A program made the translations under genes and the position numbers. The notes below the pieces were generated by a model. That model was not told where the DNA came from, ran no database searches, and saw nothing but the letters and a program-made list of their open reading frames with translations. A stretch of DNA of 64,000 nt from Carcharhinus amblyrhynchos (taxonomy: Eukaryota): the NCBI GenBank assembly GCA_965287045.1, contig OZ336903.1:496001-560000 (forward strand). The letters are read 5' to 3'. This document shows positions 14,101 to 17,100 of this stretch, piece by piece. Each line of letters begins with the position of its first letter. The stretch's first letter is position 1.

Positions 14101-17100
14101 ATGGGCCTACATTTTACAGTACCAAACTTCCCTTGTCTCTATATCTCTTCCAAATAAAGTTAGTATTCCACATTCAGCCACGGCCTTGCATTTTTTTTAT
14201 TTTCACGCCATTTCTTGTGAAGTCAGTGTCCCTGGCAATGGCAGCATTTATTATCTGTACCCAGATGTCTTCAGAAATTGATTGCTGACTGTTTTTTTGC
14301 TGCCTGGCTGCAGTAAATGATTCACTGGTGCAGGCATAGTGAGATTAGGGATTTAGCGCTCACGAGAACGAAGCAACCCCGATATCGTCCGAACTCAGCA
14401 TGTTGACCGACTTAGAAGGGAATGTACAATTCAGGGTATTGTCATGGGTCTGACCTTGTATTTCCAGGTGGTAGAAATCGCGGGTTTGGAATGAACTGCC
14501 GAATGAGTCTTGGCCATTTGTTGTTGTGTATCATCTACACGGTACACAAATGATTCAGGTGATGGCTGTTTTTTAACAAATGACGCTGCTGACCAGCGCC
14601 TTCTATTTCATTGTTTTTGGTGTCATTAGTGATCTGTTGCAGGAAGAAAAGGGGCCACAGGTTTAAGGTGACAGGGGAAATTTAAAGTAAGATGTGTGGG
14701 AAAAGCTCAGAAAGTAGTGCATGCCTGCAAGGCGCTGCCAGAGGAGGTGATGGAAGCAGGCACATGAGAAACATTTTAAGAGGCATCTGGATGGGTGTAA
14801 GAATAAGGAGGAACTGGAAGGATAGGGACGGAAGTAATACAACATGTTTTTTGCTTAAATGGGCTTCATGATGGACAAGGGATTGAAGGACAGAAGGGTC
14901 TATTTCCGAGATGTACTTCTCTTTATTCTGTGTTTTTGAAATGGGTCACTGATTCAGTGGGAGAATTACTGAACGCTGAAAAGTGGAGCCAGAGATAGGA
15001 AGACGGAATGGGTGAAGAGGGTCAGAGATTCCAGCTGGACCATAGAAATTGTCAACATTTTGAGTAAATATTGAAATGCTATCCCACAATTCTGACAATG
15101 AGTACACATTAAGTGGAAGTTTTCTGGTATTGTTTGCGATGTGTTCATAAGGATAGCTGAGGATTGCATTGGAAATAAATGACGCACTTCCGTATTGTGG
15201 ACGGTGGTGTAGAAATATTCGAGTACCTTCATCATTGTTAATCTGTGGATCAAGTTATAAATTTCAGCAATCCAACCGGAGACAGGAGTCGCTGCCCTGT
15301 TCATTTTATTATGCAAACTAGAGGCTAAAGTGGATTTGGAGATTTGACTGACACAAAATATCCCTGTTTGGGAATACGGTTACACGTGGTTAAAAATGGA
15401 TTCAAAAAATGGAATGAGGCCGGGACATTCATAGGCCATAGTATCACGGGTGTTGTAATTAAAAAAAATCAAATGCTTACAAAACATAGAGTGAAGAAAT
15501 AACACAGATCCTCGGTGTTGACTTTGTGATGTATGATTTTGACAGTTTCATTCATCTCGTGTTCCAGCAAAGACTAATTTTTAAAATTTCATTTCAGGCA
15601 GACCAGGGAACAGCCAGGCTGATCCATCAGGTAATCGCCCTCCAAATTCATATCTGATATTTTACTGCACTAATCCATCCAACTGAATGATCAATCCCTG
15701 AGACAGTTTCAGTATCTTTGCGTTCAATGGTTCGGTTCAATGTCTGCCTGTCAGGTGTGAAGGAAAATGTTCTTGCAATCTTTTCTCGTAAATCTTTAAC
15801 TTCTGCTCCCTAATTCAGAAATTTGGTCCCCGAGGAGCAGAGTTTTAGAAATAAAGTTTCACTTCTCTAGTTCCCAGTCAGCGCTGAAATGCAATGCAAT
15901 ATGAAGCCCTTCCACCCCTGGTGTATTAGGGTTCCGCCGAAAACTCGCCGCATCTCATAGCCCCGGGAAGGGCTGGAGACTACCTGACTGTCCAATTCAG
16001 CCGGTTGCAGCAGGGCGAACCACCTGGTTCAACACTCGCGGCAGATATCGAATCCATGCACGGATTGGGATTCCACTATATTAGCCCAGGCAGTATGGTG
16101 GATCGCAGGCCATAACAGCCCCGAGTTGTGCGGATTGAATCAAGTAAGCACCCATCGAATCTCCTGCCTGACGCAGCCGAATGATGCTTCCAACTTCCAA
16201 CTGATTTGCGCCTGTTTCCCACTGTCAATCCATATTCCCGCTTCCACTTGCAATGTCTCAGGGGGAGGGAGTGGAACCGGATACGACAGTGACGTTTAAG
16301 GGGCGTCTTGATAAGTAAATAGATAGGGTGGGAATAGAGGAATATGGCCCCCAGAACGGTAGGGGTTTTTAGTTCAGTCGCGCAGTAAGGTCGGTGCAGG
16401 CGAGTAGGGCGGAAGGGCCTGTTCCTGTGCTGCATTTTTTTTTGTTCTTTGTCTCATATTATCCCAGGATTTGTTGAGATCCTTGACACACTCGATACTT
16501 GATTTGATTCCGATCTGACCTGCTGCAACAACTGGCCAATAACTGTAAGTTTATTTGTTTTACAGAGTCGGTGAAGCTGAGACTAGCGAATGGGCAGAGT
16601 CGGTGCGCTGGGAGAGTGGAGATTCACTACAGGGGACAGTGGGGCACTGTGTATGGTAGTTACTGGGACCAGCCGGACGCCGATGTTGTGTGTGGGGAGC
16701 TGGGCTGCGGGACCGCGCTCTCTGCACCAGGCGGGGCTCACTTTGGGGAAGGATCCGGACCCGTTGTGACGTTATATGTTCGGTGCAAAGGGAACGAGAC
16801 CGCCCTGCGGGAATGTCGCTCAGCCACATGGAAGCACTATAGCTCTTCGCACTCCAATGATGCCGGCGTGATTTGTTCAGGTAAAAAAAAAACTGCCCAT
16901 CATCTACAGCCTGCTCTCCGGGAAAGGGCGGATAAAGCATTCTGAGACGGTAAAGAGAGTGGTGAATAATTTCAATATTCTATCAATAGAGTTGTTGTTA
17001 CATTAACACCAGGATTTAAGTTTAGAATAAAGTAACAGCAATGAGAGTGATTAACAACTACCAGAACCGTGCACAGGCCCGCTGTGTCCTTGAGCTGAGC

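Follow-up and report, generated by a model that had tools for sequence, protein, structure and literature searches.

Ruminants have pattern receptors of the WC1 type, and chicken and platypus are predicted to have relatives of them. In bovine WC1 the distal domain is described as the most variable, with two variable regions (excerpts of PMC2681482 and PMC3511184), and cattle WC1 binds Leptospira in a copy-specific manner, through several domains and not through a1 alone (excerpts of PMC5949365). The tyrosine motif of the WC1 tail is of the type Y-(Q/E)-(D/C/E)-(I/L), and a chicken WC1/CD163c-alpha hybrid has the layout a...c-n-d-e-d' (sections of PMC2906472). A literature search covering few subscription papers yielded neither a shark study of the SRCR family described here nor one of selection on WC1 domains, the accessible part of PMC9276791 included, and it found no selection analysis of the chicken hybrid or of CD163c-alpha/SCART genes. 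The present locus lies in a 64-kb window of shark DNA (the whole stretch that was analysed), in which an inverted duplication of ~24 kb carries seven SRCR exons per copy (genes A and B).

Gene architecture and relationship to WC1

Gene A occupies the forward strand. Its first signal-peptide exon (11069..11114) was located by tblastn with shark homologues, has a GT donor and is a loose end in RNA-type contigs; the second (15598..15630) is spliced to SRCR1 at a GT..AG joint in three of four putative RNA-type runs of related organisms. The SRCR1 exon (16566..16880; AG/GT splice sites, open frame) comprises 104 codons with six cysteines, lacking Cys2 and Cys7, and is followed by the SRCR2-SRCR7 exons of ~310 nt each (19224..25086, with starts at 19224, 20506, 21135, 22972, 24212 and 24778), joined to SRCR2 in one of the four runs, again at GT..AG. 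These unsorted contigs show splicing of the family, without bearing on its site of expression; a sequencing-run search listed no RNA record and returned no run matching half of the query words. Shark and ray homologues delimit a transmembrane (TM) exon with a glutamate within the helix (25454..25570), a cytoplasmic exon with the motif YEEI (27710..27812) and a second cytoplasmic exon (31238..31349), and A/B conservation points to a probable last exon near 32640-32690. Gene B (41413..61166, reverse strand) is a paralogue in inverted orientation whose exons follow the order of those in gene A (leader 61166, SRCR1-7 55629-46421, TM ~46050, tail 43800 and 41529); its SRCR1 exon (55312..55629), identified by splice sites and alignment to A, has 105 codons. 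Named shark and ray homologues locate the two signal-peptide exons, the TM exon and the YEEI exon in both genes, and the closest named proteins are those of skates, rays, sharks and chimaera, at 63-77% identity. The intron of gene B between SRCR5 and SRCR6 contains an open stretch of 244 codons with reverse-transcriptase motifs (47943-48674) that is absent from gene A and is presumably a fragment of a CR1-type LINE.

A genome search uncovered a cluster of 24 loci spanning 1.9 Mb (contig C34, 0.16-2.05 Mb), which together contain 36 or more intact SRCR1 exons, a lower bound given that 40 of 80 candidates were scored. Each gene has one, two or three SRCR1 exons upstream of SRCR2-7; four genes are without a complete SRCR2, and one locus has a leader and SRCR1 only within the 20 kb examined. 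All 36 SRCR1 exons have an open frame and are without Cys2 and Cys7, and together they encode 35 distinct proteins. Their domain lengths are 104, 105, 107, 108 and 110 codons, with length differences confined to the third of the variable patches described below and all in frame. Five broken or partial exons were left out of the counts (g10 SRCR5 fragment, g11 SRCR7, g12 SRCR1 fragment, g12 SRCR2 and g19 SRCR6). YEEI is present in 23 of the 23 tail exons found in the cluster.

Several further features of the copies were observed. Every one of the 23 copies found in the cluster, as well as two genes of a second cluster, keeps the glutamate of the TM helix, which might interact with a basic residue in another protein, for example a TCR chain. 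A and B have an ITIM-like string (27736-27760), formed by a second tyrosine that precedes YEEI by four residues; in other copies this tyrosine is replaced by His, Asn or Asp, and the tails of different copies may therefore differ in signalling. The second cluster (C34:8.5-8.8 Mb; L161-L167) comprises some seven related genes whose distal part is a tandem of three or four six-cysteine domains; these are likewise variable around patch 1. Two distant gene pairs are near-identical, at ~99% in SRCR1: C34:158681-175009 with 2035863-2052198, and C34:218896-227366 with 1230244-1238473, the latter much more divergent from SRCR4 onward, which suggests partial conversion or a recombinant gene. Family-wide synonymous divergence of SRCR4 (21135-21443) is 0.043, far under that of other domains and introns, suggesting recent homogenisation or constraint at the DNA level. 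Near positions 998000, 1204500, 1330700 and 1480300 of the contig, SRCR1 is intact and stops or frameshifts occur in SRCR6, SRCR7 or the TM exon; these copies may be pseudogenes, soluble forms or loop donors.

The genes have the features of group B SRCR proteins of the CD163 family (domains of SRCR fold with 6-8 cysteines, each on a single exon), including its membrane-proximal b-c...d-e-d' cassette, TM segment and tail. In a domain tree, which placed SRCR2, 3 and 7 and gave no clade for SRCR4, 5 and 6, SRCR2 groups with b (100/82), SRCR3 falls in the b/c clade (100/97) and SRCR7 groups with d' (98/90). SRCR4, also a six-cysteine domain, fits by pattern and position, not by tree, the n-type domain without Cys2/Cys7 that follows c in CD163c-alpha/SCART. 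The order of a distal six-cysteine domain, b, c, six-cysteine n-like domain, d, e, d', TM and tyrosine motif is that of the chicken hybrid, as far as sections of its description (PMC2906472) give it. With WC1 the shark genes share a multigene array (here of 24 loci), a distal SRCR domain that is the most variable, and a tail whose YEEI fits the WC1 tyrosine motif. They differ in layout, (SRCR1)1-3-b-c-n-like-d-e-d' versus a-b-c-d-e-d-b-c-d-e-d' or a six-domain form without n, in having seven domain types, the fourth of them with six cysteines, in carrying one to three variable domains per gene, and in a framework that is far more uniform (~80% identity between copies) with sharper patches. The best domain tree, built on only 104 columns, places shark SRCR1 with fish six-cysteine domains (96/82) and WC1 a with CD163 h-j (95/84); joining the two is not rejected on those 104 columns (p-AU 0.30 and 0.41). 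Judged by sequence, shark SRCR1 resembles WC1 a1 in design, within a gene that does not have the WC1 layout.

Divergence and positive selection in SRCR1

Global alignment of the SRCR1 exons of A and B gives 37 substitutions and one 3-nt gap, with 23 residue differences and one inserted residue; 7 changes are synonymous and 30 non-synonymous, for a dN/dS of 1.56 (Nei-Gojobori). These values agree closely with those of a preliminary description of the window (about 38 substitutions, a 3-nt indel, about 6 synonymous changes and about 24 residues), which had also placed the three variable patches where they are found. Its further observation that SRCR1 exceeds SRCR2-6 in residue changes (put there at about 7-13) extends to the whole stalk: SRCR2, 3, 4, 5, 6 and 7 differ at 11, 12, 7, 10, 10 and 9 residues, with dN/dS between 0.20 and 1.12. 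Between patches 1 and 2 lies a conserved framework including the helix, Cys3 and Cys4, in which A and B are identical over 83 nt (16675..16757; formerly given as 81 nt) and family diversity is 0.04-0.07.

The exon had also been considered more diverged than its nearby intron. The intron segment in question (17041-17245) is indeed nearly unchanged, with 5 differences in 205 nt (about 6 had been reported), but it falls within the lowest 4% of equal-sized windows, while 504 of 4865 columns (10.4%) are mismatched in the A/B introns over 14001-19600. Because the segment is unrepresentative of this background, the exon-versus-intron argument is invalid: 37 or more mismatches occur in 23% of 312-nt intron windows, and greater divergence of the SRCR1 exon as a whole is ruled out. 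Divergence above A/B introns is limited to the patches. The conserved segment has ordinary diversity family-wide and is probably a conversion tract between the neighbours A and B.

Codon models over the 36 paralogous exons bear out the diversifying selection proposed for SRCR1 by comparison with WC1 a1, with omega above 1 and far above that of SRCR2-7. The code used reproduces the M0 likelihood of IQ-TREE (-3420.98 versus -3421.05). M2a is favoured over M1a with 2dL 312 and 17% of sites at omega 7.0, and M8 over M8a with 2dL 307; the M2a comparison retains 2dL 220 without indel columns and 169-186 with one exon per gene, and trees built per segment keep the signal (54, 66 and 37). Null simulations on shuffled trees reach 2dL 13. 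Those with strong site-rate variation reach 137 in 16 runs, with overall omega no higher than 0.61 against 1.24 observed for SRCR1; the plain likelihood ratio is thus inflated, and the models were therefore refitted with gamma rates. With gamma rates and indel columns dropped, SRCR1 still yields 2dL 76, omega 7.0 and the same sites, against 0-7.2 for SRCR2-7, which were tested under M1a/M2a with and without gamma. Selection in SRCR2-7 is not claimed from their plain 2dL of 2.6-21, which lies within the range of the simulated artefact.

About 15 codons of SRCR1 evolve at omega near 7. The firm ones are 29, 31, 32, 69, 70, 74, 86, 87 and 97, joined by 89-94 in the indel zone. Codons 29, 31 and 32 have posteriors of 1.0 in M2a and M2a+gamma, and codons 69, 70 and 74 of 0.98-1.0; codons 86, 87 and 97 are selected without indel columns and 89-94 when these are included. 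The posterior of codon 30 ranges from 0.05 to 0.98 by data set, with 0.05 in the full set, where it is not selected. Eighteen columns of SRCR1 exceed 1.5 bits of entropy, compared with 0-10 in SRCR2-7. SRCR6 has nearly as many residue differences per pair (mean 21.1 versus 21.8), and its protein variability is in step with its synonymous divergence (pS 0.25), without a selection signal. Four near-identical SRCR1 pairs show 6 synonymous and 6 non-synonymous changes, small counts that indicate no recent excess of replacements.

The selected patches and the SRCR ligand site

In SALSA SRCR8, D1019, D1020, E1086, D1058, D1059 and N1081 hold two exposed cations required for ligand binding, D1023 and D1026 form a buried site, and the same ligand surface is used in CD6, CD163 and MARCO (available sections of PMC7043408). 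An AlphaFold model of SRCR1 (pLDDT 97, from a 93-sequence alignment) superposes on this domain with TM 0.96 and 1.3 A over 104 columns, and the sequence match likewise pairs 104 with 104. Placed on SRCR1 by motif spacing, the six exposed residues correspond to codons 30, 31, 97, 69, 70 and 92, and the buried ones to codons 34 and 37. The 15 selected codons, out of 104, include five of these six exposed residues (P 1.8e-4), all but codon 30, the D1019 equivalent; the buried site-1 aspartates are each kept in 34 of 36 exons. SRCR1 thereby shares fold and surface with SALSA/DMBT1, CD163, MARCO and CD6 and differs from them in that the acidic cation ligands, conserved there, are its fastest-evolving positions.

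By this mapping, the earlier suggestion that the variable residues form a ligand-binding surface gains support, in that the selected codons fall on the exposed ligand site of solved SRCR domains. Patch 1 (codons 29-32; 16652..16663) includes the former Cys2 and the equivalents of D1019, D1020 and S1021, patch 2 (codons 69-74; 16772..16789) those of D1058 and D1059, and patch 3 (codons 84-97; 16817..16858), the length-variable loop, the former Cys7 and the equivalents of N1081 and E1086. Cys2 and Cys7 are bonded in eight-cysteine SRCR domains (sections of PMC2906472); as their counterparts in SRCR1, where the bond is absent, are codons 29 and 93, patches 1 and 3 should be neighbours. All three patches would lie on one face, a placement derived from the SALSA mapping rather than from a measure of surface area. 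The selected face is 26% aromatic and 31% charged, with no Cys. It is very probable that selection acts on the predicted ligand-binding face of SRCR1.

The same positions vary in related domains. Among 27 other domains of the cartilaginous-fish-type clade to which SRCR1 belongs, column variability follows that of SRCR1 closely (rho 0.78). In 37 ruminant-type WC1 a1 domains (cattle, sheep and goat), of which 35 lack Cys2, column entropy also follows the shark domain (rho 0.53), 8 of the top 15 variable columns are shared (P 1e-4), and indels occur in the loop equivalent to patch 3. Callorhinchus domains of SRCR1 type (P0170, P0191 and P0238) have insertions in patch 1, not patch 3. The design, with one disulfide lost and the ligand face varied, is suggested to be either ancestral to jawed vertebrates or to have arisen twice at the same positions.

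Loops have also been exchanged between copies. A triplet scan identified two of the 36 exons as significant chimeras after Bonferroni correction: up to and including patch 2, C34:1824013 agrees with 453568 at every informative site, beyond which it tracks 825923, and C34:895163 shows the reverse switch, matching 1337339 through patch 3 and into the intron. Both breakpoints fall in the spacer from patch 2 to patch 3 (16781..16823), at window-equivalent positions 16781-16792 and 16786-16823. A PHI-type test detected no recombination in SRCR1 (P 0.45), and distances in the 5' intron correlated with those in the 3' intron at rho -0.11 in a Mantel test with a weak control (0.17), so no claim of general shuffling is made.

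Candidate ligands and the germline repertoire

The SRCR1 exon encodes the membrane-distal domain of a shark type I receptor multigene family, and three patches on its predicted ligand-binding face probably undergo strong diversifying selection, likely since each copy binds a different microbial surface. A process free of positive selection would instead involve relaxed loops or mutation or conversion hot spots, with homogenisation of the framework lowering dS and inflating omega. In a tree-free comparison, codon positions 1/2/3 have diversities of 0.51/0.53/0.11 in patch 1 and 0.06/0.05/0.07 in the framework, whose third positions are thus less diverse than the flanking introns (0.19), as homogenisation would predict; the nine firm sites have slightly elevated third-position diversity (0.23), and rate variation does inflate the likelihood test. 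However, positions 1 and 2 at the sites predefined from SALSA have diversities of 0.49-0.50, exceeding each of 20000 draws of intron sites, the signal persists under gamma rates and with segment trees, and every one of the 36 exons remains in frame across five lengths. Neutral origins of this kind are largely refuted and highly improbable.

Selection statistics do not give the direction of a conflict, and the patches could reflect a defensive arms race of the paired-receptor kind, in which the tip domain is the target of a viral or parasite protein, or of a decoy, and copies diversify to evade or counter this binding instead of broadening microbial recognition; the replacement of the second tail tyrosine in some copies would permit differing signals. 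Escape requires only loss of binding, whereas the changes lie on the family's own ligand site and favour Tyr, Asp and other binding residues, loop length has been added in frame, and one gene can contain as many as three copies of the domain. Direct binding of bacteria is described for WC1, the closest parallel (excerpts of PMC5949365), and a defensive origin is considered unlikely. Less likely still is that the variable face recognises self ligands that are polymorphic, such as MHC-like proteins, immunoglobulin or others of the cell surface. In CD6, which has lost its dependence on calcium, this surface serves to bind CD166 (available sections of PMC7043408), and SRCR1 is likewise without most cation ligands, but self recognition predicts few conserved copies, in place of nearly as many proteins as exons and omega near 7. 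Microbial ligands remain the likely driver of SRCR1 diversification.

The acidic calcium-bridging site, which in other SRCR domains serves broad polyanion binding, would have become a surface that differs from copy to copy and abounds in Asp, Tyr, Ser, Gly and Arg. Loss of the Cys2-Cys7 bond, which ties patch 1 to patch 3 in eight-cysteine domains, would have freed the loop to vary in length in frame, and point substitution, loop indels and loop swapping together may build a germline repertoire. Each gene provides one to three variable tip domains on a six-domain stalk under purifying selection, followed by the TM helix and YEEI tail, and the tail tyrosine may relay ligand binding as a signal, similarly to WC1 of gamma-delta T cells. 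The chances that the shark family is expressed on T cells may be put at about even. [quoted passage not shown]

The cluster amounts to 36 natural variants on one framework, with variation pinned to a cation-binding face known from crystal structures. Since the natural chimeras separate patch 3 from patches 1 and 2, specificity is directly mappable. A small, stable scaffold with three variable loops parallels the design of antibodies and VNARs, and these roughly two dozen receptor genes likely constitute an inherited repertoire of microbe sensors, like that of cattle WC1.
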